A stretch of DNA of 46,689 bases. Origin: a virus. A program made the position numbers and the translations under genes. The stretch is from the IMG/VR virus record IMGVR_UViG_3300045988_030912, positions 1 through 46,689 of that record; one strand, 5' to 3'. The stretch's first letter is position 1. The number at the start of each line of letters is the position of its first letter. Shown in pieces: positions 3,734 through 28,575 of the stretch. Under the pieces are notes generated by a model. That model did not search any database. It had not been told where the DNA came from and saw nothing but the letters and a program-made list of their open reading frames with translations.

Positions 3734-4412
3734 GATGCGGTTGCTCCTTTCTGGTGTTCTGCGGCCCTGTCGGCCGCGATCTGGCTGTATTTGGGATCGA
3801 GCTCGATCCCGATGTACTGGCGCCCCGTCTTGGCCGCTGCGGCCAGCGTGGAGCCGCTGCCGGCGAAGGGGTCGAGGATCAGGGCGCCGGGCTCGGTGGT
3901 GGCCTCGATCAGCCTCTCGAGCAGCGCCACGGGCTTCTCGTTGGGGTGGATCAGGGCGGCGTTGCCGACCTTCGGGCAGGCGATGACGTTGTCCGGCCGC
4001 TTGCCCGGGAACTCGAAGCGCCCCTTCACGGCGAAGATGATGACGTCATAGCGCGGGGCGAAGGACGCCTTCAGATCTCCCATGCCGTGCGCCTGCCGAT
4101 CCCATACGATGACCGACTTCACGGTCAGGCCGGCGAGCTCGAGGGCGTCAACAAAAACCTGCTGAACATCCCATCGGGCAAAACAGAGTACCCCCCCCGC
4201 GACTTCACGACTCTGGCGGCGTCGTAGATCCACCAGATGAACGGGGCCTTGTCGTTGCTGATTTTGGCGAGCCGGCGATCCTTCTCCTTGCGGTTGCTCT
4301 GGTAGTCGATGCCGTAGGGCGGGTCGGTGATGACCATGTCGACGCTCTCGGCCTCCATGCTGCGCAGGATCGTCAGGCTGTCGCCGGTGATGACGGTGTT
4401 GTGTTGGATCAT
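3730..4412 (-). pseudogene. N4/N6 DNA methyltransferase (DPPY type) split by a frameshift in a G8 tract (C8 on the + strand, 4191..4198)
   Basis: The N-terminal part (start 4412, MIQHNTVITGDSL...VDMVITDPPYGIDY...KSRGG) and the C-terminal part (...VFVDALELAGL...ILDPFAGSGSTLAAA...YIGIELD) lie in different frames. Inserting one G (G9) joins them as ...KSRGGVLCFARWD... Confidence 0.85.
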
Positions 4413-5119
4413 TATTCCGGGCTCCTTTCTGCGAAAAATCGGTGCCCGCCCACTTCGATGACGAAGATCTGACTCTCGTGGAAGCTGCTGCTCACGATGG
4501 CGGGGTTGTAGAAGTAGAGGATGGGCTCGTCGGTGACGGTCTCCCCGTCGTCGAATACGGCCGCCACGGCGTCCCTGACGCTTTGTGTGGGCTCGGGCCG
4601 GCGTGTGGTGTACTTGTACGCCACGACGGCCTCCGAAGGCGCTGTACCGCTTTTCTCGGCGGCATTGAGTATGCACTGCGCGACGAGCATCTGGCCCTCG
4701 AAGGACTCGCCGCCGGCTTCGGCCATGACCACGCGCTCGACCACGTCGCGCTCGGCGTCGGTCAGGGCGTAGCGGGGAGTGGGGGGCTCCTCGACTGCCG
4801 GGGCGGTCTGCTGCGTCTGCGTCACGATCGTCGGGAAGTAGCCAGCCGGCCACTGCGACGCGAGTGGCTCGGTGATGGTCGTGTTTTGGTCGACCGTCGG
4901 CTGGTCTGCGGTCACTGCCGTGACCACGATGTAGACGAGGGCGAAGATCAGAGTCAGCAGGATCAGCAGCGCCGTGAGCCTGCGGCGGCGGTACTTGGCG
5001 CGGCGCTTTTTTCGTGCTATAATACGGTCGCGGGATCCGTTGGCGGGCTGGCCGTCGGTATTCCTCGCAGGGGTCGCTCGGGCGTAACGGGCGGCCCCAT
5101 CTTTTGTTAATGCCTCCAT
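4412..5119 (-). CDS. Membrane-anchored SleB/CwlJ-like cell-wall hydrolase domain protein
   Basis: Basic N-terminus, one TM helix (LTALLILLTLIFALVYIVVTAV), and a C-terminal LTDAERDVVERVVMAEAGGESFEGQMLVAQCILN motif. The RBS is AAAGGAG. Confidence 0.65.
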   Translation of the reverse strand: MEALTKDGAARYARATPARNTDGQPANGSRDRIIARKKRRAKYRRRRLTALLILLTLIFALVYIVVTAVTADQPTVDQNTTITEPLASQWPAGYFPTIVTQTQQTAPAVEEPPTPRYALTDAERDVVERVVMAEAGGESFEGQMLVAQCILNAAEKSGTAPSEAVVAYKYTTRRPEPTQSVRDAVAAVFDDGETVTDEPILYFYNPAIVSSSFHESQIFVIEVGGHRFFAERSPE

Positions 5120-5413: not shown

Positions 5414-6124
5414 TCACCTCCGGGCCACGCGGGCCGGAAGGGTGCGCTCCGGGCGCGTCATGGTTTTGCTGAAGTCCTGCGCCTCGTATCTGACGCCGGT
5501 GATCCTGCGGCCGCTGACGCCGTACTTCGGGTTGTAGCCGAACAGGTTGACGTAGGTGCCGAGGTCGTCGCGCTCGTCGTCCATCGCCTTCAGCACCTCG
5601 AACAGGGCCAGCACGTCGTCGATGGCGCGGTGGCTGTTCTGCACCTTGTCCTCGAGGCCGTAGGCGATGATCGCGTTGGCGAGCTTGTGCGGGTAGGGTC
5701 TGCGGTCTTTGTAGACCGTCAGACTGTCGAGCCAGTCGATCCGGCCGACCTTGCTGCCGCGCAGCAGCTCCCGCAGGAAGCAGGCGTCAAACTGCGCATT
5801 GTGGGCGATCATCAGGATCGGGCCGGGCTGCATGAGCTTGGCGATCTGGCTGGCGGCCTTGGCAGGCTGCACGCCCTCGCTCTGGAGGATCCTGTCGGTG
5901 ATGCCGGTGAGGGTGACGATGTTCTCGGGGAGCGTCTCGCCCTCGGGCAGCTTGATGAAGGTGTCCATCTTGCCGGCGATCCGCAGGGCTCCGGCCGGGG
6001 TGCGCTCCACGCGCAGGGCGGCCAGCTCGATGATCTGGTGCTTGTCCGGCTCGAGGCCGCTGGTCTCCGTGTCGAAGATGACGAGGGCCTTGTAGCGATC
6101 CAGCAGGCTGCTCAGGTTACTCAT
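5414..6124 (-). CDS. DnaQ/epsilon-like DEDDh 3'-5' exonuclease
   Basis: Motifs VIFDTETSGL, AHNAQFDACFL and HRAIDDVLA. ATG at 6124 has AGGAGG upstream. It overlaps the stop of the preceding gene. Confidence 0.85.
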   Translation of the reverse strand: MSNLSSLLDRYKALVIFDTETSGLEPDKHQIIELAALRVERTPAGALRIAGKMDTFIKLPEGETLPENIVTLTGITDRILQSEGVQPAKAASQIAKLMQPGPILMIAHNAQFDACFLRELLRGSKVGRIDWLDSLTVYKDRRPYPHKLANAIIAYGLEDKVQNSHRAIDDVLALFEVLKAMDDERDDLGTYVNLFGYNPKYGVSGRRITGVRYEAQDFSKTMTRPERTLPARVARR

Positions 6125-6809
6125 GCGCCACCTCCTGCTCACGGGCGGCCCGCAGCGTGCCGAGCATGAAGGCGGCCGCGGCCTTGAACTGCTCCTCGGT
6201 GGCGAAACTGCTGCCGAAGCCCTCGATCAGATCCCTGACGATCTCGCCGGCGGTCTCTGCGTCGACGTCGGCCTCCTCGATGGAGATCAGGAGATCGGAG
6301 TCCAGATAACAAGCGGGGCGCAGGCCGTGGCTGCCGTAGCAGGCGAGGTGGTTGTTCAGCGAGCCGTCAGAGTAGACGAGGCGGGCGCTATGCTCGTACC
6401 CATTGGCGGCCGTACTGAAGGCCGTGCCCAGCCACCACCAGTCCGAAGCGTTGGGGATGACGTCGCGGTTGCGCCGGTACTGGTCGACGTTCAGCAGGAA
6501 GATGATGGCCTTGCAGGTGCCGTAGTCCTTCAGGCCGTCGTCGGTCGTCAGATCCACGTCGACCTCGTCGAATGCTTCGGAGCTCCCGGCCTTGTCGATC
6601 AGGGTGTCGAGGTAGGGGCCGTTCAGGTAGGTGCGGCTCGTGCTCTTGCTCCAGTCGTTGCAGTTGCCCTCGTCGAATGCTCGCAGCTCGGTGATGTCCT
6701 CAGCCAGACAGAGGGTGCGGCCTTCAGGGTCGTGCTCCAGTGCGATCCAGCGCTGGCCCGCGTAGGCGAAGGCGGCGCCGCGGTCGAGGGTCTTGAGTGC
6801 TTTCTTCAT
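6117..6809 (-). CDS. Remote DGR target protein (230 aa) carrying variable repeat VR2; paralogous to the N-terminal domain of the 569-aa target
   Basis: ATG at 6809 with AAAGGAG upstream (the ORF-track start at 6974 is an over-extension). Contains ...WWWLGTAF...SARLVYSDGSLNNHLACYGSHGLRPACYLDSDLLIS, homologous to TR and VR1. Confidence 0.85.
   Translation of the reverse strand: MKKALKTLDRGAAFAYAGQRWIALEHDPEGRTLCLAEDITELRAFDEGNCNDWSKSTSRTYLNGPYLDTLIDKAGSSEAFDEVDVDLTTDDGLKDYGTCKAIIFLLNVDQYRRNRDVIPNASDWWWLGTAFSTAANGYEHSARLVYSDGSLNNHLACYGSHGLRPACYLDSDLLISIEEADVDAETAGEIVRDLIEGFGSSFATEEQFKAAAAFMLGTLRAAREQEVAHE
6311..6389 (-). repeat. DGR variable repeat 2 (VR2)
   Basis: 79-nt alignment to TR 19813..19891. 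There are 14 mismatches, all at + strand T (template A). Homology breaks down beyond about 6389-6392. Confidence 0.85.
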
Positions 6810-6985
6810 GGTTTCGCTCCTTTCAATCGTTGCGGCCGGCCCTCCGGGCTGGCCTGTTTTTGTTTCAGTGGCTCGCCGGCGCGGAGCCGGCTGGCGCAGT
6901 GGGGGCAGATGTAGCCGGTGGGCGGGATCGGCTGGTATATGCTCACATTCCAGACGAGGCCGCAGCCGACGCACTTGGCGGTCAT
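6806..6985 (-). CDS. Small zinc-ribbon protein (59 aa), translationally coupled (ATGA) to the remote DGR target
   Basis: My translation is MTAKCVGCGLVWNVSIYQPIPPTGYICPHCASRLRAGEPLKQKQ...KP*, with CxxC...CxxC. Its TGA overlaps the ATG at 6809. A weak GAGAGG RBS is present. Below the ORF-track length cutoff. Confidence 0.5.
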   Translation of the reverse strand: MTAKCVGCGLVWNVSIYQPIPPTGYICPHCASRLRAGEPLKQKQASPEGRPQRLKGAKP

Positions 6986-7052: not shown

Positions 7053-7631
7053 TTAGGCCGTTGGCGATGCGCTCGTCAGCTCTTTCAGGTTTTTGGCGGC
7101 ACAGCAGGAGCAACTCACACGGTCGAGCTTTTCGTAAAGCCCCTCCCAGTCGTAGCCTGCGGCATAGCATCCGGCGAGGCACTCTGCTTCAGTGATCCCC
7201 CACTCTGCGAGAGGGAACGCTTTGCCCGGCGCCCGCTCTTTAGCGAGACGCTCTGGCTCGTCGGCTGCTATGCCTATGAGGACGACGTTGCCCTTGTTGT
7301 ATTTGTCGAGTGCCTTGGTCTTTTCCGTTGTGCCCCATCGGACTCCTCGGGCTCCGCACCACGAGTAACCGCAGTGTGTGCCGCCGCCCTTTTCGTTGAC
7401 CGGCTTCTCGAACATGAGGTAGTCGAAACTGACGGCGGGGTGGAGCGTTGTGAACTGGATGCCGTTTTTCTTGCATAATTGGCGCAGTTGTTCCATGTGG
7501 CGATACATTTGCGGGAACTCCCACCCAGTGTCAAAAAATACGCACTCGTCCGGCGGTGTCCCTCTGCGGATTTCCTCGAGCAGCAGGAAGGTTGAGTCCT
7601 TGCCGCCAGACAGTGAGAGCGTTGTTTTCAT
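7053..7631 (-). CDS. PAPS-reductase / PP-loop ATPase family protein
   Basis: N-terminal SLSGGKDS PP-loop and a C-terminal Cys cluster (CSCCAAKN). The RBS is AAAGGAGG. Confidence 0.75.
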   Translation of the reverse strand: MKTTLSLSGGKDSTFLLLEEIRRGTPPDECVFFDTGWEFPQMYRHMEQLRQLCKKNGIQFTTLHPAVSFDYLMFEKPVNEKGGGTHCGYSWCGARGVRWGTTEKTKALDKYNKGNVVLIGIAADEPERLAKERAPGKAFPLAEWGITEAECLAGCYAAGYDWEGLYEKLDRVSCSCCAAKNLKELTSASPTA

Positions 7632-8643: not shown

Positions 8644-8705
8644 CTTTCTTCGCAATAATTGTATTACTCCGCGCCCGCTTTGTCAAGTAGTTATTGCGAA
8701 AAAAG
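8644..8705. repeat. Imperfect 17-bp inverted repeat (15/17) bracketing the early promoter; candidate operator or recombination site
   Basis: ctttcttcgcaataatt (8644-8660) matches the reverse complement of agttattgcgaaaaaag (8689-8705). The core TTCGCAATAA / TTATTGCGAA is perfect. Confidence 0.7.
8658..8686 (-). promoter_or_regulatory. Sigma-70-type promoter (TTGACA - 17 nt - TACAAT) reading into the early genes
   Basis: On the minus strand: TTGACAaagcgggcgcggagtaaTACAAT. It lies in an AT-rich intergenic region. Confidence 0.7.
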
Positions 8706-8717
8706 TCAAAAATATTT

Positions 8718-9758
8718 TTAGGCGGCGGCCATGATGGTCTCCAGATGCCCCTCAAACCGGGCCGCAGCGGTCTCGAAGTCGAAGATCTCGCGGGGGTAGT
8801 TGTTGAGCCATGCCTCGATCCGGGCGACCTCCTCCTTGCTGACGCTGGCGAAGCTGGTGCCCTTCGGGAGCCAGCGCCGGATCATGCGGTTTTGGTTTTC
8901 GTTGCTGCCGCGCTCGTATGAGCTGTACGGGTGGCAGTAGTAGACCTTCGTGCGCTTACCCTTGCCCCGGCGCTTCTTCTCGATGCCTTCGCAGTCGGAG
9001 AACTCGACGCCGTTGTCGCAGGTGATGGTCTTGAAGATCTCGGGGAAGTGTTTGCCGAACTTCCACTCGATGCGGTTGAGGGCCTTCACGACGCTGGCCG
9101 TGGTGCGGTCAGGCATGAGGAGCATGAACTCGTAGCGGGTGAGCCGCTCGGTCAGCACCAGCAGCGTCTCCTTGGCGTGGCCGGCGCTGACGATGGTGTC
9201 CATCTCCCAGTGTCCGAAGGTGTCGCGGGTGTCGACCTCGTCCGGCCGGTTTTCGATGCTCTCGCCGGCGGGCGGGCGCGTGACTCTGACCTTGCGCTTG
9301 GTGTTCTTCTTTTTCGGCTTCTCGGGGAGATCCTCGATGGTGATCCGACCAAAGACGCCGAGCTCGATGTAGCGGTAGAGGGTGGGCTTGCTGATGGTGA
9401 CGGAGAACTCGAGGCCGAGCCGCTTGATCTCGCCGAGGACTGCGCCCGGGCTGTATCGCTCGTCGGCGATCTTGGTCTCGATATAGTCGGCGAGGGCGTA
9501 GTCGTTGCCGAGCTTGATCGGGGCGCCCTTGGCCTTCAGGTTATCCCGGTAGCGCTCGTCGGCGATGTCCGGGCTGTATCTGATCTCGGTTGTGTAGTCG
9601 CTGTTCAGGTGCTCATAGGTGCCGCGCTTCAGCTCCCGGTAGACGGTGCTAACGTGGAAGCCGAGCTCGTCGGCGGCCTGCTGCTTGCTCTTGCCGGCCT
9701 TGATCTTTTCCTCCAGCCGGATGCGGTCGGTCATGGTCAGATGTCTGAATTTTCCCAT
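8718..9758 (-). CDS. IS30-family DDE transposase/integrase (346 aa)
   Basis: N-terminal HTH (SKQQAADELGFHVSTVYRELKRG). DDE triad context: HWEMDTIV, ITCDNGVEF, YSSYERGSNENQN. The RBS is GAGGAGG. Confidence 0.9.
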   Translation of the reverse strand: MGKFRHLTMTDRIRLEEKIKAGKSKQQAADELGFHVSTVYRELKRGTYEHLNSDYTTEIRYSPDIADERYRDNLKAKGAPIKLGNDYALADYIETKIADERYSPGAVLGEIKRLGLEFSVTISKPTLYRYIELGVFGRITIEDLPEKPKKKNTKRKVRVTRPPAGESIENRPDEVDTRDTFGHWEMDTIVSAGHAKETLLVLTERLTRYEFMLLMPDRTTASVVKALNRIEWKFGKHFPEIFKTITCDNGVEFSDCEGIEKKRRGKGKRTKVYYCHPYSSYERGSNENQNRMIRRWLPKGTSFASVSKEEVARIEAWLNNYPREIFDFETAAARFEGHLETIMAAA

Positions 9759-9824: not shown

Positions 9825-10088
9825 TTATCGGTTGTCGTAGCTTCCGAGCTGCTCCAGTGTCTCCTCGTCGGTGACGATGTCGGCCAGCTTGCACTCCAGC
9901 GCGTTGCACAGCTTCAGGAGCGTGACCAGCTTGGCCCCGTTCAGATCCCTGACGCCCTGCTCGTAATTCTGGAGCACGCGGGTGCTGATGTCTGCCGCGG
10001 CAGCGAGCTGAGACTGCGAGAGGCCGCGATCCTCGCGCAGCGCTTTCAGCCTCTCGTTTTTGTAGGTCACATCGATCTTGATCTCCAT
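9825..10088 (-). CDS. XRE-family HTH transcriptional regulator (87 aa)
   Basis: LKALREDRGLSQSQLAAAADISTRVLQNYEQG is a classic HTH_3 pattern. Confidence 0.85.
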   Translation of the reverse strand: MEIKIDVTYKNERLKALREDRGLSQSQLAAAADISTRVLQNYEQGVRDLNGAKLVTLLKLCNALECKLADIVTDEETLEQLGSYDNR

Positions 10089-10103: not shown

Positions 10104-10133
10104 TTGACTTTGCCGTGGTTTTGGTTATATAAT
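10104..10133 (+). promoter_or_regulatory. Plus-strand sigma-70-type promoter (TTGACT - 18 nt - TATAAT), divergent from XRE 9825..10088 and convergent with promoter 10356..10384
   Basis: cgcTTGACTttgccgtggttttggttaTATAATaaagg. Confidence 0.55.
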
Positions 10134-10164
10134 AAAGGCGGTGGGTGGGATTTCCCCACCGCCT
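10127..10164 (-). terminator. Intrinsic terminator after the 38-aa ORF
   Basis: 10-bp stem aggcggtggg / cccaccgcct. On the minus strand it is followed by TTTATTATAT. Confidence 0.6.
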
Positions 10165-10168
10165 CGGC

Positions 10169-10285
10169 TTACTGCTTGGGTTTCTGGTTGGGCTTTATCG
10201 TGATTGTAATGGTTGCCACATTCTCGCACGTTAGAGCCTTTTCCAGCAGCTCGAGCAGTTTTTTTATCTGCTCATTGTTGTCCAC
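10169..10285 (-). CDS. Small ORF (38 aa, GTG start), predicted helical and non-hydrophobic
   Basis: AAAGGAGG lies 7 nt upstream of the GTG. Translation: VDNNEQIKKLLELLEKALTCENVATITITIKPNQKPKQ*. Flanked by a consensus promoter and a terminator. Confidence 0.5.
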   Translation of the reverse strand: MDNNEQIKKLLELLEKALTCENVATITITIKPNQKPKQ

Positions 10286-10355
10286 GGCGTTGCCTCCTTT
10301 CTGCGGTTTTGGTCTCCTTTCTTCGTTTACTCGGCTATCCCTTGCCTGTGATTAT

Positions 10356-10384
10356 ATTATACATCAAATGATGGATAATGTCAA
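10356..10384 (-). promoter_or_regulatory. Perfect-consensus sigma-70 promoter (TTGACA - 17 nt - TATAAT)
   Basis: On the minus strand: ctcTTGACAttatccatcatttgatgTATAATataatc. Confidence 0.75.
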
Positions 10385-10410
10385 GAGAAAAAGGGCATTT
10401 TTTCGTGATT

Positions 10411-10451
10411 TTTCAAGAAGAAAAGCAGCAGGAGCGCGGCCCCTGCTGCTT
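10411..10451 (-). terminator. Intrinsic terminator after XRE 10451..10696
   Basis: Stem aagcagcagg / cctgctgctt overlaps the stop codon. On the minus strand it is followed by TTCTTCTTG. Confidence 0.6.
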
Positions 10452-10696
10452 CATTCTTCGATGCTCAAAAGGTGGTAGACGGTGACGCCGAGGGCGTCGG
10501 CCAAATATTGCAGCTCGTAGTCAGCGACGACCCGGTCGCCGGTCTCGATCCTGCTGATCGCCTTCTGTGTGATGCTCAGACCTGCGAGCTGGATCTTGGC
10601 GGCGAGCTGCTCCTGAGACAGTCCAGCCCGCTCCCGCGCCGCCCTGACCTTTTCGCCCGATGCGTTGCACCGACCGTCCGGCCGGTAGATTTTCAC
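10451..10696 (-). CDS. XRE-family HTH regulator (81 aa, GTG start), candidate prophage repressor
   Basis: VRAARERAGLSQEQLAAKIQLAGLSITQKAISRIETG. GAGGAGG lies 7 nt upstream. It is divergent from the only plus-strand gene. Confidence 0.85.
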   Translation of the reverse strand: MKIYRPDGRCNASGEKVRAARERAGLSQEQLAAKIQLAGLSITQKAISRIETGDRVVADYELQYLADALGVTVYHLLSIEE

Positions 10697-10719
10697 AGCT
10701 TCGCCTCCTCTCTTTCTCC

Positions 10720-10789
10720 TATTATCCCAAAGATGGGTAGATCATATTGACGGTACCACGCTTTTCGTGATAATATTATCCCAAAGATG
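10720..10789. repeat. Two copies of a 16-bp direct repeat, tattatcccaaagatg (10720-10735 and 10774-10789); candidate operators
   Basis: The two copies are exact and spaced 54 bp apart, start to start. The second overlaps the -10 region of the plus-strand promoter. Confidence 0.7.
10747..10776 (+). promoter_or_regulatory. Sigma-70-type promoter for the plus-strand gene (TTGACG - 17/18 nt - ATAATA/TAATAT)
   Basis: tatTTGACGgtaccacgcttttcgtgATAATAtt. Confidence 0.55.
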
Positions 10790-10835: not shown

Positions 10836-11582
10836 ATGGGAGCACGTTTCAGAAAAAGCAAGAAGGTCGCGCCCGGTGTGCATCTGAATATCAACAAAAA
10901 CAGCGCGAGCGTCAGCTTCGGCCCGAAGGGCCTGAAGCATACGGTCAGCACCACGGGCAAAAGCCACACGACGGTCGGGATCCCGGGGACGGGCCTGTCC
11001 TATACCGCCGGATCCGGCAGCCAGTCGGGGAGCATCCCCTCGGCGCAGCGGCCGACCTCGCCGAAAAGCAAGGGGGTCGCGCTGGCGCTGTGCATCTTCC
11101 TCGGGATGTTCGGAGTGCATCGGTACTATGTCGGGAAGATCGGCACAGGCGTGATCTGGACGTTTACGGCCGGCTGCTTCGGTATCGGCTGGATCGTTGA
11201 CATCTTCACGATCATCGGCGGCGGGTTTTACGACTCGACCGGGCGCGTGCTGCGCTTCAGCCCGACCGAGGACGAGTTGGAGCAGGCGCAGATCATCGCC
11301 GACTATGAGGCAACCAGCGCGGCCGAGCTGTGGGCCCGGTGGGGCGACCACTTGCAGTACAAGCCGCAGCAGGATCGGCGTGACCGCGCCCTCAACGGCG
11401 ACCTGATGCCCGACGTGGTGGATCTGGAGAAGAAGTGCGCCACGTTCCTCGGTGGCAGCGGCAAAAAGTACGCCACGACGCTGATCGGCTGCACCTGCCC
11501 CGACTTCGAGGAGCGGGAGAAGCCCTGCAAACACATTTACTGGCTGGCCCATGAGCTCGGCCTTGACGTCGGCGAAGAATAG
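10836..11582 (+). CDS. DUF4236-like N-terminus, TM2 two-helix membrane domain and C-terminal SWIM zinc finger fused in one protein (moron; only + strand gene)
   Basis: MGARFRKSKKVAPGVHLNINKNSASVSFGPKG...GIPGTGLSY, then FGVHRYYVGKIGTGVIWTFTAGCFGIGWIVD, then CTCPDFEEREKPCKHIYWL. The RBS is GGAAGGAGG. Confidence 0.8.
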   Translation: MGARFRKSKKVAPGVHLNINKNSASVSFGPKGLKHTVSTTGKSHTTVGIPGTGLSYTAGSGSQSGSIPSAQRPTSPKSKGVALALCIFLGMFGVHRYYVGKIGTGVIWTFTAGCFGIGWIVDIFTIIGGGFYDSTGRVLRFSPTEDELEQAQIIADYEATSAAELWARWGDHLQYKPQQDRRDRALNGDLMPDVVDLEKKCATFLGGSGKKYATTLIGCTCPDFEEREKPCKHIYWLAHELGLDVGEE

Positions 11583-14218: not shown

Positions 14219-15940
14219 TTAGGCCACGGGGTAAGTAAAGGCAACCATATAGCTGTTGCCCGTAAAGCCATTATTGGCCGTCATTCTCCCATCTGCGGTC
14301 ACTGAAATTCTAAGCGGTTCATTACTTTCGCTGCTTCCGCCTGTTCCGTAGGGAGAAAAGCCATAATAAAGTTGTTTGCCCGATGCTGGCTTTGGAAGCC
14401 CCGAAAAAATGACAGTATAGCCGGATGCTTTTTCTCTCACGGTTATATAGGCGTTAAACTGACACACTCCATTCTTGACGCAATAATAATTATCCGCTGC
14501 GCCAAGCGTGTAATTTGTGCCGCCTCCAAGAATTGAAGTGATTTCATTTACAGTATCCGCAACGCCGTTTGTAATTCTTTCCTCAATCTGCTTGCTACTC
14601 CATGTGCTGTCCTCGCTCACGGCGGCGTCGTCGATGGCGGCCCCGTCTTTCCCCGGCTGCCCCTGCGGGATGCCGAGGTTGACCTTGTACTGCCCGGGGA
14701 CGTCGGGATCGGGGACGACCTCAGACGCGGCAGGCTCGTCAGGGCCGAGGGTCGTGGTGGCGCCGCCGATCAGCGTGGGCGTGGTGCCTGCGGGGCCTTG
14801 CGGGCCCTGTTCTCCCTGTGGGCCTGCGGGGCCTGCCGGGCCTTCAGCTCCGGGCTCACCTTGCGGCCCTGCGGGGCCTTGCTCGCCCTGCGGCCCCTGC
14901 GGGCCTGCGGGGCCGGCGTTGCCGGCGGGGCCCTGTTCTCCGGCGGGGCCTTGCTCGCCCTGCGGGCCTGCGGGGCCTGCCGGGCCGGTAGCTCCGGGCT
15001 CGCCCTGCTCACCTTGCGGCCCCTGTTCGCCTGCCGGGCCTGCCGGGCCCTGCTGACCTTCGGGGCCGGTGGCTCCAGCGGGGCCCTCGGGGCCCTGCGG
15101 GCCTTGGATGCCCTGCGGCCCCTGCGCACCACGGAGGGCGAGGAGCTGCCAGAAGGGATCGTCGGAGAGGCCGGTGGTGGGCGCCTCGTTGGTGGGGTTG
15201 TCTTGCTTGCAGGCGTAGGAATTGCCGTCGGTGTGGGTGATGTAGTCGTTTTTGGTGTAGGGAGGATCCGCGGCCACGTCGTAGTCGCCGCGGGGGTTGA
15301 TGGCCGAGACGGCGCTCTCGCCGGGCTCGCCCTGTGGCCCCTGTGGGCCTTCGGGGCCTTGGATGCCCTGCTCGCCCTGTGGGCCGCGCTCTCCCTGCGG
15401 GCCCTTCTCTCCGGCGGGGCCCTGTGGGCCTTGGATGCCCTGCGGGCCCTGTTCTCCCTGCGGGCCGGCCTCCCCGGGATCGCCCTGCGGCCCCTGCGGG
15501 CCGGCAGGGCCTTGGAGCCCTTGCTCGCCTTGCGGGCCGGTGCCGCCGGGGTTGCCCTGCGGCCCCTGCGGGCCGGCGGGGCCTTGGATCCCCTGCGGGC
15601 CTTCGGGCCCGGTCGCTCCGGCGGGGCCGGCAGGCCCCTGAGCACCTTCAGCGCCCTGCGCCCCGGTGGGGCCCTGTGGGCCGGTGGCACCCGGAGGGCC
15701 TTGGATGCCCTGCTGCCCGGCGGGGCCCTGAGCGCCTTCGGGGCCCTGCGGGCCGTCCATGACGGTGAGGGTCTGCGTCTTTGTGGTGCCGTCGTCCAGC
15801 GTCCACGCAAAGACGACCTCGCTGCCGCCGGCCACGGGATTGATCGACTGGATGGTGCAGTTTTTTCCCTTCAGGGCGCCGCCGCCGATGACAGTCTCCT
15901 CGGTGTACTTCTTAGCCAGTACCAGTGCCAAAAGATCCAT
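14219..15940 (-). CDS. Collagen-like (Gly-X-Y) tail fibre with a globular C-terminal domain
   Basis: Two long GXY blocks ([13 protein letters not shown]...) are separated by a globular insert of about 60 aa. The last ~125 aa are beta-rich. The RBS is AAGGAGG. Confidence 0.85.
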
Positions 15941-16773: not shown

Positions 16774-18483
16774 TTATGCGAAGTTGCCGCCGATGCTCTG
16801 GATGTAGCAGGTCTCGGTCGCGGAGCCGCGCAGGAGCTTCGCCTTGACCTTCACGCCCCACGCATCCGCGGTCTTGGTCGTGTTGGTGAACAGGTGCTTG
16901 GTGCCGTTGAGGACTTTGGTGCTGATGTCCTCCCATGTGGGCGCTGCGTCGTTGCCGTTGTTGCAGATCCAGACGCTCAGGGTGCAGCCGGCCGGGAAGT
17001 GGCCCTGAATGTTGACGAGGGCCTTGGTCGGCATATCGTCGGCAGCCATCGCGAGAGTCTGCTCGAACTCGATGACGGTCACGGCCTTGGTGAAGGTCAG
17101 CGTCCGGGTGGCACTGTCGCCCATCGCGTCGGTCGCCGTGACGGTCAGGGTGTGCCCGCCGTTGACGAGCTTCAGCCATGCGTCGGCGTCGAGGCTCAGG
17201 GTGTTGGTATTGCCGAGGGTGGCCGTGAAGCTCCTCAGCGTGGCGCCGTCCAGCTTCTCCACGACGGTGACGGCGTGGTTGTCCGCGTCGGTGACGGTGT
17301 ACTCGAAGCTCGGGCCGGTGGCGCTGAAGCTGCCGAGATCCTTGTCGGTGCCGCTGATGACCGGCGACCGGTTGTTGGTCACTGTGCGGCTCGGCCCCGT
17401 GGTATAGGCAGACTCCGCGCCCACGGCGTCGTATGCCTTGACGCGGTACTGCACGGTCGACCAGCCGAAGGTCACGGCCGCGGTGTAGGAGCGGTTGGCG
17501 CCCTTGTAGATCTGCGTCCATGTGCCGTCGTTGGCCTTCTGCTCCAGAATGTAGCCGGCGAGGGCTCCTTCGGGGTCGGTGGAGGCGCCCCATGTGATCG
17601 TCGCGCTCTGGCCGCCGTACACGGTGGCCGGCACGTTGATGGAGGCCGGGGCAGTCGGGGCCTCGTTGTAGATCAGGGTGTAGCAGCCGTCCGCGTCGGT
17701 GGAGTCGGAGATCAGGAGATCGGAGGACAGATTACAAGCGGGGCGCAGGCCGCTGAGGCCGCCGTAGGCGCTGCCGTAGCTCAGCGTGCCGACAGGGCGG
17801 ACGAGGCGGGCGTAGTCGGCCGACCCGGCATAGGCGTCCCGCAGCCAGTAGTACCACGCAGCATTGGCGGCCGGGTTGCTGGAGTAGTTGGAATTGGCGA
17901 CGCAGGCCGCGGTCACGGTGGCGATGCGGCTGGCGTTGTCGCTGAACATGGCGATCTTGCTGCCGCAGGTGTGGTCGCCGGTCAGGCCGACCTCAGTGCA
18001 GGACAGGAGGAATACCTTGTCGACGCAGGTCTCCGTCCCGCCGCCGTCTGTGGAGCTCTTGCCGACGGTGAGGGTGGTCTCCAGCAGGGCGGCCCGCTCC
18101 TCGGCCGTGAAGGCGCTCAGGAAGCCGGCGATGGTGTCGTAGGCGTTGGTATTGCTCCAGACGTTTGCCGTGGAGGGAGGGGCGTCAGCGCTGTGCTGCG
18201 CGGTGTACCACGATCCAGCCGCCGCCGGGCTGTTGAGCCACTGCCGGATGTTGGAGTAGATATAGCGGTTATTGCCGTAGCTGACGCGGTTGCTGTCGCC
18301 GTTGCTCGCCTCCTTCGCGTCGAAGCACAGGAGCTTGATGATCTGCTCGGCGACGAGGGTGACGCTGCCCGACGGGTAGCCGGTGTGATTTATGTCGGCG
18401 ATCTTCCAGATGATCGGGGCGCTGTGAAGGCTGCCGAACTTAACCTTTGCCCCGGTTGCGAGGCTGCTCAGTTTTTGGGCCAT
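16774..18483 (-). CDS. DGR target protein 1 (569 aa): N-terminal variable ligand-binding domain carrying VR1, followed by Ig/FN3-like repeats
   Basis: VR1 covers aa ~219-249 (AGSADYARLVRPVGTLSYGSAYGGLSGLRPA). The C-terminal ~310 aa are beta-rich repeats (ITWGASTDPEGALAGYILEQ..., YRVKAYD...). An AAAGGAG RBS lies inside the RT 3' end. Confidence 0.9.
   Translation of the reverse strand: MAQKLSSLATGAKVKFGSLHSAPIIWKIADINHTGYPSGSVTLVAEQIIKLLCFDAKEASNGDSNRVSYGNNRYIYSNIRQWLNSPAAAGSWYTAQHSADAPPSTANVWSNTNAYDTIAGFLSAFTAEERAALLETTLTVGKSSTDGGGTETCVDKVFLLSCTEVGLTGDHTCGSKIAMFSDNASRIATVTAACVANSNYSSNPAANAAWYYWLRDAYAGSADYARLVRPVGTLSYGSAYGGLSGLRPACNLSSDLLISDSTDADGCYTLIYNEAPTAPASINVPATVYGGQSATITWGASTDPEGALAGYILEQKANDGTWTQIYKGANRSYTAAVTFGWSTVQYRVKAYDAVGAESAYTTGPSRTVTNNRSPVISGTDKDLGSFSATGPSFEYTVTDADNHAVTVVEKLDGATLRSFTATLGNTNTLSLDADAWLKLVNGGHTLTVTATDAMGDSATRTLTFTKAVTVIEFEQTLAMAADDMPTKALVNIQGHFPAGCTLSVWICNNGNDAAPTWEDISTKVLNGTKHLFTNTTKTADAWGVKVKAKLLRGSATETCYIQSIGGNFA
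17736..17830 (-). repeat. DGR variable repeat 1 (VR1)
   Basis: 95-nt alignment to TR 19813..19907. There are 18 mismatches, all at + strand T (coding-strand A of TR). Confidence 0.9.
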
Positions 18484-19618
18484 GTGTGTCGTCTCCTTTC
18501 GGGTTTTGAGGTTTCAGCTCCGGGAAATAACCGAAGAAGTAGGAGTCCATGCTCTGCCGCAGGTGGTAGGTGTTGCCGTGTGAGATATGGCCGCACCAGC
18601 TCGCGTAGGAGTGCAGGACGCTCTCGTGGGTCATCTTGCCGGCGTCCACCAGCCAGTGGTATTTGCGGATCTTCCGCTTCATGTTGTCGATGCTCTTGGC
18701 CCGCACCTTCCTGACCACCTTGCCGGTGTGCGTGAGGTAGGTGTGGAAGCCGAGGAAGTCGATGCCGTTCTTCAGCGGGAAGATCTGCGTCTTTTTGTTC
18801 AGCCGCAGGCCGAGGGGCTCGATGTACGCCTCGATCTTCTTCAGGATCCGACGGAGCAGCAGCTTGTCGTTGCTGATGATGTAGAAGTCGTCCATGTATC
18901 TGCCATAGACGAGGCCGAGGCCGTCCCGCAGCCAGTGGTCGAAGTCGTCGAGGTAGAGCAGCGCGAGGAGCTGGCTGCTCTGGTTGCCGATCGGGATGCC
19001 CGGATCCGGCGTGCTGTCGATGACCAGCCACAGGAGCCACTCGACGAAGTCGCGCAGCTCCTCGTCGTCGATGACTGCGAGGGCCTTCTTCGCCTTCTCG
19101 TAGCACACAGCATGGAGAAGGGTGTAAAAGAACTTTGAAAAATCTCCCTTGAGCACCCACCCGTCGGCGTAGTCCCACTCCTCCATCGGCCGGTATGGCA
19201 GGCCGGCAGCCCGGCGGGCTGCTTCGTCCGCTGCCTTGCGGCTGAAGAAGTAGTGGCGCATGGCCTTGGCGAGTCGGTCGAGGCCGAAGTGGGTGCCCTT
19301 GCCGACCTGCCCCGCATAGTTGTCCCGGATCAGACGCCGGGAGAAGCAGGGCTCGAGGACGTTGTCGCATAGGGAGTGCTGCACGACCTTCCCCTCGAAG
19401 TCGATGGCGAGCACGAGGCGCTCCTTGGGCTCGTACACCTTGAAGGGGTAGTACGGGCCGAAGGTGTACTCGCGCCGCTGGAGCCTTCGGGCGAGGTCGT
19501 CGGTGCGCTCCACGGCCTCCATGCGGTAGCGCATGGCCGTGGGGTTGTCGCGCTTGCCGCAGCGGGTTTTCCTATATGCGGCATACAGCGCGGTGAAGCT
19601 GTTGACGATGTTCTCCAT
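18440..19618 (-). CDS. DGR reverse transcriptase (alternative GTG start at 19654)
   Basis: YGRYMDDFYII (YxDD catalytic box) and IGNQSSQLLALLYL ([I/V/L]GxxxSQ, a DGR-clade hallmark). It lies next to TR and Avd. Confidence 0.9.
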   Translation of the reverse strand: MENIVNSFTALYAAYRKTRCGKRDNPTAMRYRMEAVERTDDLARRLQRREYTFGPYYPFKVYEPKERLVLAIDFEGKVVQHSLCDNVLEPCFSRRLIRDNYAGQVGKGTHFGLDRLAKAMRHYFFSRKAADEAARRAAGLPYRPMEEWDYADGWVLKGDFSKFFYTLLHAVCYEKAKKALAVIDDEELRDFVEWLLWLVIDSTPDPGIPIGNQSSQLLALLYLDDFDHWLRDGLGLVYGRYMDDFYIISNDKLLLRRILKKIEAYIEPLGLRLNKKTQIFPLKNGIDFLGFHTYLTHTGKVVRKVRAKSIDNMKRKIRKYHWLVDAGKMTHESVLHSYASWCGHISHGNTYHLRQSMDSYFFGYFPELKPQNPKGDDTHGPKTEQPRNRGKG

Positions 19619-19812
19619 GATTAAAAAATCCCTGCCGTGGATAGCTCCGGCCACGCTTTGCGTGCGCCGCCGGGAGCATCAGCAGTCCTGTGTTTACCCA
19701 TGACCGCGCCGGTCAGACGGCGCAGGCTGCGGGAGGGATACGCCTTCCTTGGATGATGGTGCATTGTGTTCGCCGCCCTCCGCGGGCGGGTAATAAGTCG
19801 AGCGATCCATCG

Positions 19813-19907
19813 AAGCGGGGCGCAGGCCGTTGTTGCCGTTGTAGGCGTTGTTGTTGTTCAGCGTGCCGTCAGTGTTGACGTTGCGGGCGTTGTTGGCCGA
19901 CCCGGCA
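19813..19907 (-). repeat. DGR template repeat (TR). It is separated from the RT gene by a spacer: 158 nt to the GTG at 19654 (spacer 19655..19812), or 194 nt to the ATG at 19618.
   Basis: The coding-sense TR reads gcc ggg tcg gcc AAC AAC gcc cgc AAC gtc AAC ACT gac ggc ACG ctg AAC AAC AAC AAC gcc TAC AAC ggc AAC AAC ggc ctg cgc ccc gct. That is 11 AAC codons and 26 adenines. Confidence 0.9.
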
Positions 19908-19941: not shown

Positions 19942-20331
19942 TTAGGTCTTTCTGACCATCTTGGCAGCCCTCTCCTTATCCGTTTTGTACCATTTGGCGG
20001 TCTGGTTTTTTACGCCGGCCGCCATCCTCGCCCAGTAGGCGAAGGCGTCATCGCCGAGCCCGCCGAGGATCTCGTGGGCGAGCTCGATGTGGTGGATCAG
20101 CTTGCGGCAGTTGCGCAGGGCTGACCGCTGCGCCCGGAAGCGCAGCTCCCGCTCCTCCGGGTCGGCGAGGAGCAGGTCGTTGGCCTCCATGAGGTCAGCG
20201 ACCAGATCGCTCGCTTCATTCATCATCCGTTGAGCGAGGCCGAGCCTCTCCTTCTTCGGGAAGATGTTGGCGTTGCGGGTCTTGATGTAGGTGTGCTTCT
20301 CGAGCTCCTTGGCGTCGGTGATGACCTGCAT
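19942..20331 (-). CDS. avd: Avd-like accessory variability determinant (four-helix-bundle, basic, 129 aa)
   Basis: Its size, helical pattern and basic C-terminus fit Avd, and it sits immediately upstream of TR. The sequence resembles the 23S-rRNA-IVS/Avd family. Confidence 0.7.
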   Translation of the reverse strand: MQVITDAKELEKHTYIKTRNANIFPKKERLGLAQRMMNEASDLVADLMEANDLLLADPEERELRFRAQRSALRNCRKLIHHIELAHEILGGLGDDAFAYWARMAAGVKNQTAKWYKTDKERAAKMVRKT

Positions 20332-25831: not shown

Positions 25832-28046
25832 AGGTGCCGCCCTCCCTTCTGCTGAGCGCTTCGAGGACGAAGTCGACGAACTCCGGCTCCAGCTCGCGCA
25901 GCTTGCGGATCAGGGCGTCCTCGTCGGTGTCGCCCTCGATCTTGATCTGCGGGGAGAAGGAGAGGCCGCTGAGGTCATAGACCACAGACGTGCCGGAGCC
26001 GCCACTGAGCAGCTCGTAGTCGCTCTCTGTTGATGCGCCGAGCATCTGCCCGGCCCTCGCCCAGTAGGCGAGGTTTTCGCTGCGGTACGCAGGGTTGAAG
26101 CTGATGACCGCCTCCATCGGGTAGCGAGGATCCTCGCCGGCGAGGGAGGGGCCGCTGGTGAAGCCGCCGGTCGCGTAGCCCGAAGGGGCTGAGCCGCCGC
26201 CGGTGAACAGGCCGACGATCCACCCGAGGCCGTCCGCGACCCATCCGACCACCTTGGAAATGAAGCCCACGATCGTGCCGAGCACGTTGGCGATGGGCTG
26301 GAGGACGCTCAGGATCGGCGTCAGGACGGGCAGGATCGCATTGAGCAGCGAGAGGATCGGAGGCAGCAGCGCCTCGACCAGTTGGATGATCGGGGGCATG
26401 AGAGGCATGACCACGTCGTTGACGAGCTGGAGCGCCATGTCGAGGATCGGCATGATGATCGGGATCAGCGTCTGGAGCAGGGTCATGATGGGGGGTAGCA
26501 GGGCCTCCATGATCTGCGTGAGCATCGGCAGCAGCGGCATAATGACCGCGTTGACCAGTTGCAGGGCCATATCCAGCAGCGGGGTGATGACCGGCAGCAG
26601 ACCGGCGATGAGCTGCGTCAGTACCGGCAGCACGGCCGCTATAATTTGGGTCAGCATCGGCAGGATTGCCGAGAGGATGCTGGCGATCGGCGGTAGGATG
26701 GCCTGCACGATCTGGATCAGAGGCGGGAGGAGCTGCTCGACCAGATCCAGAATAGGCGGGAGCAGTGTGCTCATGAGCTCCGTCAGGATTGGCAGCAGGC
26801 TCGACGCCAGATTTGCGATCAGGGGCAGCACCTTTTTCAGCACGTCGCCCATCCCCTTGAGGAAGTCCTGCACAAACGGCATACAGTCGTCGAGGGTTTG
26901 GGTGATGACCGGCTGGATGGCCTCGAAGGTCTCGGTCAGGATCGGGGCCAGCGCGGTCAGGGCGTTGGCGATTGTGGAGGCCATCGGCAGCAGCGTCACC
27001 TCTGCGGAGCGCTTGATCTGCTCGAGGGCACTGCCGAGGTCGTTGTACTTGACGTCGTTGATGTGCTGGAGCGCGTCGGCGCCGTCATAGGCAGCCGTCT
27101 CGATGTCGGCCAGCACGGGCAGGACGCCCGCCTCCAGATCCTCGAACTGCGAGCCGAACAGGGCGACGCCGATCTGGTTTTTCAGGAGTGGATCTTCCAG
27201 CGCGTTGAGCGCTTCCACGGTGTCAAAAAATGCCGCCTCTGCGGACTCGCCGCCGGCGGCAAAAGCCTCGAACATTCGGTCAGCGTTTAGGCCGAGGCCC
27301 TCGAAGGCTTCCCGGCTGCTGTCGCTGCCATCTTTTGCGCGGATGTTGAACTCCTTCACGGCGTCGCCGATCTTGTCGATGCTGAACAGGCCAGCGTCGG
27401 CGCCTTCGATCAGGGAGCCCATGAACTGATCCGCGCTCAGGCCGAGGGCTGCGTATTGGGCGCTGTACTCGTTGAGGGTGTCGAGCAGGTCGCCGTTTTT
27501 GTCTGCGCCGTTTTGGGCGCCGGTTGCGATCAGGCCGTAGGCTTCCTCCGCGGTGAGCCCGAAGTTTTTCATCAGGGCAGCGGCCGCCCGGCTGCTTTCC
27601 CCGATCTCATACTCGAAGGTGTCCCGCAGCACGAAGGCCGAAGCGGTTGCCGCCTCCAGCTCCTCACCCACGAGTCCGCTGTTTTGCTTCACCACGGCCA
27701 GACCGTCGGCCACGTCCTTGAAGTCGTCGCCGAGGCCCTTGGCATAGACGCCCTTGACGGCTTCGCCGAGGGCTTCCAGCTCTGCGCCGGTCGCACCCGT
27801 AGACGCCGAGAGGTCGTTCATCGTGGTGTTCCAGTCGTCCCCGAGATCCGCGAGGTACTTCCCGGCCTCGACGACCGCCTTGCCCGTTGCGATTGCGACG
27901 CCGCCCATCGCGGCGCCGACGGCTGCGGCCTTCCAGTTGACCTTGTCGAGGTGGCCGGCGACGTCGTCCAGCGCCTTCCCGAGCGACGGGTCGATGGTGC
28001 CGGCGAAGCTCACGACGGCCTGAAGCATTTTATTTTTCCCGGCCAT
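25803..28046 (-). CDS. Tail tape measure protein
   Basis: 747 aa. TP901-type core (AKGLGDDFKDVADGLAVVKQNSGL...LIATGAQNGADKNGDLLDTLNEY) and a long LLPxL-periodic helical region. ATG at 28046 with AGGAGG 8 nt upstream. Confidence 0.9.
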   Translation of the reverse strand: MAGKNKMLQAVVSFAGTIDPSLGKALDDVAGHLDKVNWKAAAVGAAMGGVAIATGKAVVEAGKYLADLGDDWNTTMNDLSASTGATGAELEALGEAVKGVYAKGLGDDFKDVADGLAVVKQNSGLVGEELEAATASAFVLRDTFEYEIGESSRAAAALMKNFGLTAEEAYGLIATGAQNGADKNGDLLDTLNEYSAQYAALGLSADQFMGSLIEGADAGLFSIDKIGDAVKEFNIRAKDGSDSSREAFEGLGLNADRMFEAFAAGGESAEAAFFDTVEALNALEDPLLKNQIGVALFGSQFEDLEAGVLPVLADIETAAYDGADALQHINDVKYNDLGSALEQIKRSAEVTLLPMASTIANALTALAPILTETFEAIQPVITQTLDDCMPFVQDFLKGMGDVLKKVLPLIANLASSLLPILTELMSTLLPPILDLVEQLLPPLIQIVQAILPPIASILSAILPMLTQIIAAVLPVLTQLIAGLLPVITPLLDMALQLVNAVIMPLLPMLTQIMEALLPPIMTLLQTLIPIIMPILDMALQLVNDVVMPLMPPIIQLVEALLPPILSLLNAILPVLTPILSVLQPIANVLGTIVGFISKVVGWVADGLGWIVGLFTGGGSAPSGYATGGFTSGPSLAGEDPRYPMEAVISFNPAYRSENLAYWARAGQMLGASTESDYELLSGGSGTSVVYDLSGLSFSPQIKIEGDTDEDALIRKLRELEPEFVDFVLEALSRREGGTYVTADSRLY

Positions 28047-28051
28047 GTGCG

Positions 28052-28575
28052 TCACCTCCTTCGGATCTTCCGGCCTTTATAGGGCGGGACGGGGATCTTC
28101 TTGGCCGCCTTGGCTCGTTCTTCCTTGGCGTCCTCGATGGCCTCCCCGTACTCCGTCAGGAAGTCGGTCAGCCGTTTTCCTTCGAGGTCTCGGCGGGAGG
28201 TGTGGAAGGCTCGGCCGTAGTCCCGGAGGGCTCGTCGGAGCTGTTTTCCTCGGAGGCTGCCGCCGACCTCGAAGTAGTAAAATTTCTCCCGACCCTCATG
28301 AGCGCAGTGACGTCGGGGCCGGAGAGGCGCTCGAGGTCGGTGACGTCGATCTCGCCGTTGACGGCGATGACCGCCATCATGCCGAGGTAGACGTGCAGCG
28401 TGTAGTCCAGCTCGAAGGCGCCGGCGCTGCCGCCTCCCTTCGCCGTGGTGGCCTTCAGCTTGCGGGCCTCAGCCTCGGCGAACATTCCCACGGTGATCGC
28501 GTTGGTGTCGTAGGTCAGCTCCTTGACGGTCTTGTCGTTGATCTTGATGGGGTTGCTGAGTGTCAGCTTTTCCAT
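28052..28575 (-). CDS. Tail assembly chaperone, -1 frameshift fusion product (gpE+E'/GT-like)
   Basis: After the slip at AAATTTT, the -1 frame stays open for 75 codons. It ends at TGA 28052-28054, just upstream of the tape-measure ATG. Confidence 0.65.
28168..28575 (-). CDS. Tail assembly chaperone (gpE/gpG-like), zero-frame product
   Basis: 135-aa ORF between the tube and tape-measure genes. Confidence 0.8.
   Translation of the reverse strand: MEKLTLSNPIKINDKTVKELTYDTNAITVGMFAEAEARKLKATTAKGGGSAGAFELDYTLHVYLGMMAVIAVNGEIDVTDLERLSGPDVTALMRVGRNFTTSRSAAASEENSSDEPSGTTAEPSTPPAETSKENG
28279..28285 (-). promoter_or_regulatory. Candidate -1 programmed ribosomal frameshift heptamer A_AAT_TTT
   Basis: The zero frame reads ggg aga aat ttt act, which fits the X_XXY_YYZ pattern. 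Confidence 0.6.

Follow-up and report, generated by a model that had tools for sequence, protein, structure and literature searches.

A remote second target of a phage diversity-generating retroelement encodes a small DUF6273 protein that may act inside the infected cell

Introduction

The 46,689-nucleotide (nt) virus sequence IMGVR_UViG_3300045988_030912 of IMG/VR, analysed at its full length and referred to here as the window, is a tailed-phage genome that carries a single diversity-generating retroelement (DGR), in which one template repeat (TR) is accompanied by two variable repeats (VRs). The second of these, VR2, lies far from the DGR cassette in the gene for target 2, a stand-alone DUF6273 protein of 230 amino acids (aa), and is almost certainly a functional, live second target of that DGR. 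On balance, the comparative evidence inclines towards target 2 being a non-virion protein that would act inside the infected cell.

Phage DGRs are understood almost wholly through the switching of tropism by tail fibres. If the reading proposed here is true, DGRs would also tune interactions inside the infected cell, widening the tropism-only picture, all the more as the target is widely conserved. On a bolder and rather doubtful reading, no earlier tractable example would exist of adaptive diversification directed into the cytoplasm of the host and not at the cell surface, and in some lineages the same diversified domain would be fused to a MazG-like nucleoside triphosphate (NTP) pyrophosphohydrolase or to a gp1.7/SaV-like module. 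The family is very common in phages of human-gut Oscillospiraceae, and the cultured hosts (Faecalibacterium with Lelie, Toutatis or Brigit, and Flavonifractor plautii with an nd4-like prophage) make the question directly testable. For the window itself the result is confirmatory, the locus being another member of a published two-target architecture; the evidence for intracellular action is the new part.

Results

Adenine-restricted divergence of VR2 from the template

Aligned without gaps, positions 6311..6389 are identical to 19813..19891 at 66 of 79 positions, and each of the 13 mismatches (13/13) falls on a T of the plus strand, that is, on an A of the coding (minus) strand of TR. With 24 adenines in the 79-nt stretch of TR, the chance that 13 mismatches would all fall on A is 9.5e-9. 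The original prediction, made from the sequence alone, had counted 14 mismatches; our recount gives 13, which is also the number of nucleotide changes implied by its own peptide strings. The TR and VR2 peptides that it quoted are correct by translation, its assignment of every mismatch to a template adenine holds, and the separation of about 13.4 kb between VR2 and TR is as it stated (19813 - 6389 = 13.4 kb). When substitutions are tabulated by template base in an alignment of TR, VR1 and VR2, as had been proposed with that prediction, those of VR2 prove strictly A-restricted.

On the 5' side of VR2 the homology to TR stops near 6389-6391, where the next mismatch is at a base other than A, and on the 3' side it stops after GGCCTGCGCCCCGCTT (6311). 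By the three-way alignment, the TR match of VR1 (17736..17829) reaches about 15 nt further 5' than that of VR2. The A-free 3' end GGCCTGCGCCCCGCTT is common to TR, VR1 and VR2; TR then diverges from both VRs, and about 30 nt past the TR homology (GT[T/A]ATCTG...GATCTCCTGATCTCC) are common to VR1 and VR2 and missing from TR. The closest deposited genome, that of phage nd4 (OR777945), carries this 3' flank as well, and we regard it as a candidate target-recognition sequence.

Homing into VR2

The TRs of the window and of nd4 differ at five non-adenine positions inside the stretch that matches VR2, and at all five both VRs of each genome carry the base of their own TR. The VRs follow their own TR at lineage-specific positions that are not adenines, and VR2 has therefore received TR information after the divergence of the two lineages. 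Variation among relatives has the same signature. Across 116 homologous proteins (63-100% identical), most of the TR-adenine codons have a column entropy of 2.2-3.4 bits and admit 8-14 residue types, whereas hardly any variation is seen at the interleaved VR codons or in the GLRPACYLDSDLLIS that follows; VR codons are the only place where protein entropy peaks. Nucleotide entropy was calculated for the window together with 81 related IMG/VR contigs in which the VR2 3' junction is present, a set that compares relatives and not reads of a single strain. Within VR2 its mean is 1.43 bits for the 24 TR-A positions against 0.064 bits for the 55 others; for the remainder of the target-2 gene it is 0.22 bits. 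Zero entropy at gene positions 484-512 is forced by the 29-nt pattern with which the contigs were selected and was not counted in favour of a cis element; beyond this pattern only 14 further nt are independent. The Toutatis-like and Brigit-like clades likewise have small targets with hypervariability at the corresponding spot.

A-only mismatches, co-variation with TR and A-only hypervariability in relatives together bear out the prediction that VR2 is a genuine second, remote variable repeat, and the comparisons indicate that homing into it has been active and that VR2 is not a relic. That it is a decayed repeat which no longer receives TR information is very improbable: the exact VR2 allele of the strain is identical on 8 contigs and its match to TR is shorter than that of VR1, but the VR1 allele is equally fixed in the same samples, the 79 nt contain no non-A mismatch at all, and decay is already contradicted by the lineage-specific TR changes that VR2 carries and by the A-only hypervariability across relatives. 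Still more improbable is an origin of the TR-VR2 similarity in common ancestry of, or gene conversion between, paralogous DUF6273 genes, and not in retrohoming. VR1 and VR2 do lie in homologous domains and their 3' flank is common at about 90% identity, yet TR is non-coding and lies inside the cassette, the variation is directional, the strict restriction of differences to adenines already contradicts such an origin, and outside the VR and its flank the proteins of target 1 and target 2 are only about 30% identical.

The target-2 gene and its product

Target 2 belongs to phrog_9958, a PHROGs family of unknown function, and with 64.7% identity and equal synteny to WRQ08026 of nd4 it is the orthologue of nd4_tgt2. 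Translation and Pfam matches agree with the gene anatomy originally described (230 aa, coupling upstream to a zinc ribbon, overlap downstream with a DnaQ-like gene). The ribosome-binding site of the gene is AAGGAG. Its ATG lies within an ATGA that also contains the stop of a 59-aa CxxC...CxxC open reading frame (ORF), and its own stop overlaps the start of the exonuclease gene (6124) in ATGAGTAA. The protein has a predicted isoelectric point of 4.5 and no hydrophobic 19-aa window, the maximum Kyte-Doolittle value being 0.63, in keeping with the earlier claim that it has neither a signal peptide nor a transmembrane helix.

An AlphaFold2 model, built from a three-clade alignment to which the tentaclin domain of the window (that of target 1, described below) was added, has a predicted local distance difference test score (pLDDT) of 81 and a predicted template modelling score of 0.73; a shallow alignment, of 51 sequences with identities of 63% or more, had given a pLDDT of only 50. 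The model consists of a beta-rich domain (residues 1-176), within which the VR forms a strand (142-145), a turn and a further strand (151-157), followed by two C-terminal helices (184-198 and 205-228). The variable residues are thus carried, in the model, on a strand-turn-strand hairpin of residues 142-157. The DUF6273 fold has been described in the literature as C-type-lectin-like. Foldseek searches with target 2 against PDB and BFVD returned DUF6273 proteins only, with no match to Mtd, and neither reproduced the C-type-lectin assignment nor discerned a VR-bearing face.

In architecture, target 2 is a single domain with two helices. It lacks the N-terminal beta-prism and beta-sandwich that would serve an Mtd-like protein for trimerisation and attachment to the tail fibre, it has no immunoglobulin (Ig) anchor, and its gene lies in the early operon and not in a tail module; the combination with an Ig domain that defines tentaclins is found in target 1 and not in target 2. 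The features of target 2 are instead those of the phrog_9958/nd4_tgt2 type, in which a DUF6273 domain stands alone in a protein of about 200-235 aa, the VR closes the domain and the gene is remote from the cassette.

Genomic setting

In the window and on same-strain contigs, target 2 follows a PAPS-reductase-like gene and then the zinc-ribbon ORF, and is itself followed by the exonuclease gene, a 91-aa ORF, a Hydrolase_2-like protein and two N6 methyltransferases, and further downstream by Gam, ERF, SSB, a DnaC-like loader, RecU and another methyltransferase. Pfam, PHROGs and the same-strain contigs all place it in an early operon, as expected from its reported position among replication and DNA-modification genes. 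By pattern scan, no minus-strand terminator-like site lies between the promoter match at 8658..8686 and about position 450, and no promoter-like site belongs to target 2 alone. Its position, translational coupling and the upstream promoter match fit early-gene expression, as far as pattern matches go.

Homologues were located in further phage backbones. The nd4 homologue stands in the place corresponding to that in the window, and that of nd12 behind an IS30-like gene, towards the end of the early block. Toutatis and Lelie have theirs between methyltransferases/prohibitin and a replication initiator plus antiterminator, and Brigit directly behind cI/cro-like regulators and ahead of two exonucleases, RecT and a replisome organiser; in another backbone the homologue is near RtcB and TGT genes, and in a rumen metagenome-assembled genome it adjoins a Dam-like methyltransferase. 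It adjoins structural genes in none of the backbones examined. Such early or DNA-metabolism placement, in at least five phage backbones, lends support to a non-structural role. The phage is temperate, its relatives adjoining host genes; species-representative genomes, when scanned, yielded two distant relatives only and no host of the window's lineage.

Fusion partners in the small-target family

The small-target family comprises 1173 clusters at 50% identity (E up to 1e-3). The best 149 representatives have a median length of 227 aa; 121 match Pfam DUF6273, few match other families, and an N-terminal hydrophobic segment is present in 0/149 of this diverse set. Five of the 149, together with the rumen locus L104, carry a MazG-like NTP-pyrophosphohydrolase module (phrog_2245) C-terminally, after a full phrog_9958 domain (P0396, P0432, P0398, P0414, P0440 and L104, 665..1543; E ~3e-18 to 7e-28); this tail was found by PHROGs, was missed by Pfam and retrieved nothing in a PDB sequence search. 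An N-terminal DUF3310 module is found in nd12_tgt2 and in P0498 (Pfam 2.5e-16; phrog_236 'nucleotide kinase', 1e-31 and 2e-30). The DUF3310 domain is that of SaV, a toxic protein of lactococcal phages which is early and has been linked to AbiV sensitivity; T7 gp1.7 has it too, as do cytotoxic early proteins of mycobacteriophages. An in-frame fusion of the zinc-ribbon ORF with target 2 occurs in two relatives of the nd4-like kind, P0016 and P0014, the latter on a contig of 140 kb, and suggests that the two products may act together. All three kinds of partner, MazG-like, DUF3310 and zinc-ribbon, are modules that would be expected in the cytoplasm. Partners seen in single cases among the 149 representatives (LysM/CW_7/CHAP, HTH, IstB, LPD15 and others) were left unused, as they may be gene-call fusions with neighbours.

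The fused zinc-ribbon/target-2 ORFs measure 288-292 aa (P0014, P0016; locus L100, 6001-6867), and fused and separate forms are distinguished by a single-base frame change just past ...QASP(E/Q)G. The short C-terminal tails of Toutatis gp24 and Brigit gp06 (L002, 6001-6648; L003, 3948-4559) have a P-x-D-D-L-L-x-E-I-x-x-R motif in common, despite Toutatis-like and Brigit-like small targets being only about 30% identical; the motif could form a docking helix to which a conserved partner binds. Some clusters at 90% identity (P0121, P0122, P0297, P0242, P0009 and P0017) hold thousands of distinct members, up to 9,787; the allele of the window forms a cluster of one, its lineage being thinly sampled relative to the Toutatis-like and Brigit-like lineages.

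Features and layout of the window

The window has 64% G+C, and its minus strand carries nearly all genes; coordinates are given in Table 1. In transcription order, a first module (46.6-40.5 kb) contains DNA-metabolism genes and a late-regulator-like gene, and the structural module (39.4-20.6 kb) terminase, portal, protease, capsid, sheath, tape measure, baseplate and a tail-fibre gene. The DGR cassette follows in the order avd-TR-RT-target 1, RT being the reverse transcriptase; collagen-like fibre, holins and endolysin come after it, down to 11.6 kb. A switch region at about 10.1-10.8 kb has two helix-turn-helix (HTH) genes and divergent sigma-70-like promoter matches, and a long early operon spans about 8.6 to 0.4 kb. 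The cassette of Avd, RT, TR and VR1 is intact as judged from its sequence. A 392-aa gene call in a relative is among the reasons for placing the RT start at 19618. A tentaclin paralogue lies directly downstream of the RT gene in the cassettes of the window, nd4 and Toutatis.

Table 1. Coordinates of the DGR components, of target 2 and of neighbouring features in the window
Feature	Positions	Strand	Evidence and remarks
Target 2, 230-aa stand-alone DUF6273 protein, two C-terminal helices	6117..6809	-	Pfam DUF6273 3.1e-11, phrog_9958 1.3e-64
VR2, second DGR variable repeat, encodes SARLVYSDGSLNNHLACYGSHGLRPA	6311..6389	-	13 mismatches to TR, all at TR adenines
VR2 3' flank, GT(T/A)ATCTG(G/T)(A/C)CTCCGATCTCCTGATCTCC	6282..6310	-	Also flanks VR1 (17707..17735), absent from TR; three-way alignment
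Template repeat (TR)	19813..19906	-	VR2-copied part 19813..19891; non-coding, between avd and RT gene
avd accessory gene	19942..20331	-	phrog_3206 'Avd protein of DGR' 5.5e-25
DGR reverse transcriptase, likely start 19618	18440..19654	-	Pfam RVT_1 8.3e-13, phrog_1423 1.2e-115, YMDD and IGNQSSQ motifs
Target 1 (tentaclin), N-terminal DUF6273 and Ig-like domains	16774..18483	-	Pfam DUF6273 2.9e-35, phrog_10993 1.2e-232; VR1 17736..17829
59-aa CxxC...CxxC zinc-ribbon ORF	6806..6985	-	phrog_6107 7.3e-17; Pfam treble-clef match weak, below threshold
DnaQ/RNase_T-like 3'-5' exonuclease	5414..6124	-	Pfam RNase_T 4e-20, phrog_192 3.9e-37
PAPS-reductase-like gene, same operon, upstream of target 2	7053..7631	-	Pfam PAPS_reduct 1.7e-7, phrog_424 7.1e-26
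Sigma-70-like promoter match, TTGACA-17-TACAAT, 11/12	8658..8686	-	Consensus scan, pattern match only; heads target-2 early operon
IS30-like DDE recombinase (HTH_38 + rve)	8718..9758	-	phrog_4646 9.4e-135; between lysogeny switch and early operon

In nd4 a gene matching the IS30-like recombinase in size and place lies at 27130..28176, and nd12 has an annotated IS30 transposase there; integrated relatives (L005, L100) have only an 86-90-aa HTH_38 ORF at the corresponding prophage end, adjoining host genes. The recombinase may be the integrase of the phage and not an inserted insertion sequence. Near-consensus divergent sigma-70-like matches, 12/12 and 11/12 (10104..10774 (+), 10356..10384 (-)), flank the two small HTH genes (10696..10451 and 10088..9825), and a plus-strand gene at 10836..11582 encodes a 248-aa membrane protein; HTH genes, promoters and membrane protein gene together look like a lysis-lysogeny switch with a lysogen-expressed gene.

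The Hydrolase_2 (SleB-type cell-wall hydrolase)-like protein encoded at 4412..5119 (-), within the early DNA-metabolism operon and three genes downstream of target 2, has an odd location for a wall-acting enzyme, and is kept in relatives. Elsewhere, a 573-aa tail-fibre-like protein (14219..15940 (-)) has two long collagen-like G-X-Y repeat blocks (~14.78-15.14 and ~15.31-15.76 kb), which are the source of the largest direct-repeat families of the window. A 460-aa protein (40982..42364 (-); phrog_498 1.6e-111) fuses a ParB-like N-terminal domain to a DNA methyltransferase and is preceded by a second small CxxC...C zinc-ribbon-like protein (phrog_5984; 42351..42878 (-)). The window has at least four DNA methyltransferase genes.

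Discussion

Where the protein would act

By the established DGR mechanism, TR RNA would be reverse-transcribed by RT-Avd with misincorporation opposite A, and the resulting cDNA would replace VR2, with guidance from GGCCTGCGCCCCGCTT, the G+C-rich 3' end that contains no A, and probably also from the flank of about 30 nt common to VR1 and VR2. With moderate confidence we suppose that target 2 is made from the early operon, alongside DNA-modification, exonuclease and recombination genes, and that it serves as a diversified binder inside the infected cell and not as a receptor-binding protein of the virion. The original description of a non-structural, cytoplasmic-looking, early protein stands in part: early-region placement, the absence of a signal peptide or transmembrane helix and the fusions speak for it, and the occurrence of DUF6273 in secreted and virion-displayed proteins also speaks against it. 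The anti-defence or host-takeover role originally suggested for it stays a hypothesis, with comparative support that is indirect and comes from fusions of relatives to MazG-like, DUF3310 and zinc-ribbon modules. A more tentative idea, and a rather doubtful one, is that an intracellular early binder could be a phage-side 'antibody', its hypervariable hairpin being under selection against host factors that vary, for instance defence proteins or nucleotide-linked targets.

Several observations weigh against intracellular action. DUF6273 is otherwise found in displayed or secreted proteins, such as the tentaclin paralogue of the window genome, and a secreted IgA peptidase that is anchored in the wall has it as N-terminal domain, with no function assigned to it there and hence no functional lead. 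All three papers on the family propose receptor binding (Baykov et al. 2023, Int J Mol Sci 24:17324, PMC10743442; Gulyaeva 2024, PMC11792537; Egorov and Atkinson 2024, bioRxiv 10.1101/2024.10.15.618418). The Hydrolase_2-like protein in the early operon (5119..4412) makes context no guarantee of a cytoplasmic role. The fusions occur in relatives and not in the window protein, whose C-terminal helices match no PHROG and no known family. As to homing, no BPP-1-style hairpin or cruciform was found 3' of VR2 or VR1, folding energies there being no better than those of shuffles and only a 4-bp GATC stem being possible 3' of VR2. The exact VR1 and VR2 alleles of the strain are each unchanged on 7-8 contigs from few shared samples, so that neither varies within the assemblies of that strain; current activity in it would be a presumption from the variation across relatives.

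The principal rival, which we consider possible and yet clearly less probable than intracellular action, is the published view of target 2 as an Mtd-like protein for receptor binding or adhesion. Carried on the virion or else released, it would bind ligands of the host surface or the gut, and DGR variation would alter tropism or adherence. This view draws on the description of the family as C-type-lectin-like with the VR hairpin on the surface (Baykov; Egorov), on the paralogy with the tentaclin N-domain, diversified from one common TR, and on the IgA peptidase; virion proteins likewise lack signal peptides, and the C-terminal helices of the model could be a docking element. Against it stand the absence of the gene from, or from beside, any structural module in the backbones examined, the lack of a beta-prism/beta-sandwich or Ig anchor and of a Foldseek match to Mtd, the fusion of relatives to nucleotide-metabolism and zinc-ribbon modules, and the finding that VR1 and VR2 residues are uncorrelated within genomes (Baykov et al. 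2023, PMC10743442). Both targets are present in 39/54 nd4-like genomes and tgt2 is absent from 15/54 (Baykov et al. 2023, PMC10743442), and this dispensability argues against an essential receptor binder. Anatomy, dispensability in nd4-like genomes, context and fusion partners considered, the published guess of an Mtd-like receptor binder is not favoured. A role in the lysogen or in prophage competition, as an exclusion factor or a sensor binding proteins of incoming phages, or else as an extracellular non-virion protein released by lysis, seems unlikely. The phage is indeed temperate, with relatives adjoining host genes, tentaclins are expressed and exported from lysogens, and in Toutatisvirus the gene is core even where the DGR is missing (Egorov and Atkinson 2024); but target 2 is internal to an early lytic operon, is translationally coupled to its neighbours and has no promoter-like site of its own.

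Comparison with known systems

Mtd of Bordetella phage BPP-1 is the familiar DGR-diversified binding domain, with the VR near its C terminus and AAC-rich TR codons. It differs from target 2 in having an N-terminal beta-prism and beta-sandwich, in forming a trimeric tail-fibre tip and in being encoded beside the cassette, none of which applies to target 2. In cyanobacteria and other multicellular bacteria, C-type-lectin DGR targets are fused to STAND NTPases, kinases and proteases. Such cytoplasmic targets of cellular DGRs (for example PMC7517822) are a precedent for intracellular diversified domains fused to enzymatic or signalling modules; being cellular and not phage proteins, with other domain architectures, they are taken here as a precedent only. 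The idea of a non-structural phage DGR target has a precedent in Quimbyvirus, whose DGR has a second, distal target amid nuclease, methyltransferase and tRNA-ligase genes that was argued to be non-structural and to take part in phage-host conflict, near counter-defence genes (Benler et al. 2021, Microbiome 9:78, PMC8008677). The likeness, which we draw from the published description, lies in a DGR with a distal non-structural target; the Quimbyvirus system differs in belonging to a Bacteroides phage family and in its frameshifted RT.

Target 2 had been put forward as the most novel-looking element of the window, a claim that yields to the literature, where nd4_tgt2 and the small targets of Lelie, CP11 and Toutatis are already published. 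'Small DGR target proteins' were reported for the Faecalibacterium phages Lelie and CP11, and in 37 CP11 cognates both VRs vary, the function being called 'not entirely clear' (Gulyaeva 2024, PMC11792537). In Toutatisvirus the second VR gene is 17,480 nt from TR and is present in 98.8% of 173 genomes, the DGR being present in only 68%, and receptor binding was suggested for this second target (Egorov and Atkinson 2024). None of the three family papers was found to discuss the small DUF6273 target in terms of its early-region context; Baykov et al. use neither 'early' nor 'non-structural', and in the text of Gulyaeva et al. 'non-structural' does not occur. The proteins of Lelie, CP11 and Toutatis (gp24) resemble target 2 in being phrog_9958/DUF6273 proteins, at 32-33% identity, in which the VR closes the domain on its C-terminal side, and their genes in being remote from the cassette (17.5 kb in Toutatis), placed among early genes and paired with a tentaclin-type target. 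They differ in genus, in their upstream neighbours and in a C-terminal tail that is a shorter, single helix, and the small target is core in Toutatisvirus (98.8%) and optional in nd4-like phages.

The nearest system is that of nd4, which with nd12 was described as a two-target DGR phage whose target 1 is 'tentaclin', tgt2 being hypothesised to be Mtd-like in host binding; nd4-like genomes show A-to-N variation at all 21 VR2 adenines (Baykov et al. 2023, PMC10743442). Nucleotide identity between nd4 and the window is 80.7% over 67% of the first 25 kb. The two small targets are of similar length (234 aa in nd4 and 230 aa in the window) and have the same neighbours (a PAPS-reductase-like gene, a 59-aa zinc ribbon and an exonuclease), the cassettes have the same order, avd-TR-RT-tentaclin, and in both phages VR2 is shorter than VR1. 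The difference lies in the template: nd4 has its own TR, with five non-A changes in the stretch that matches VR2, and both VRs of nd4 follow them.

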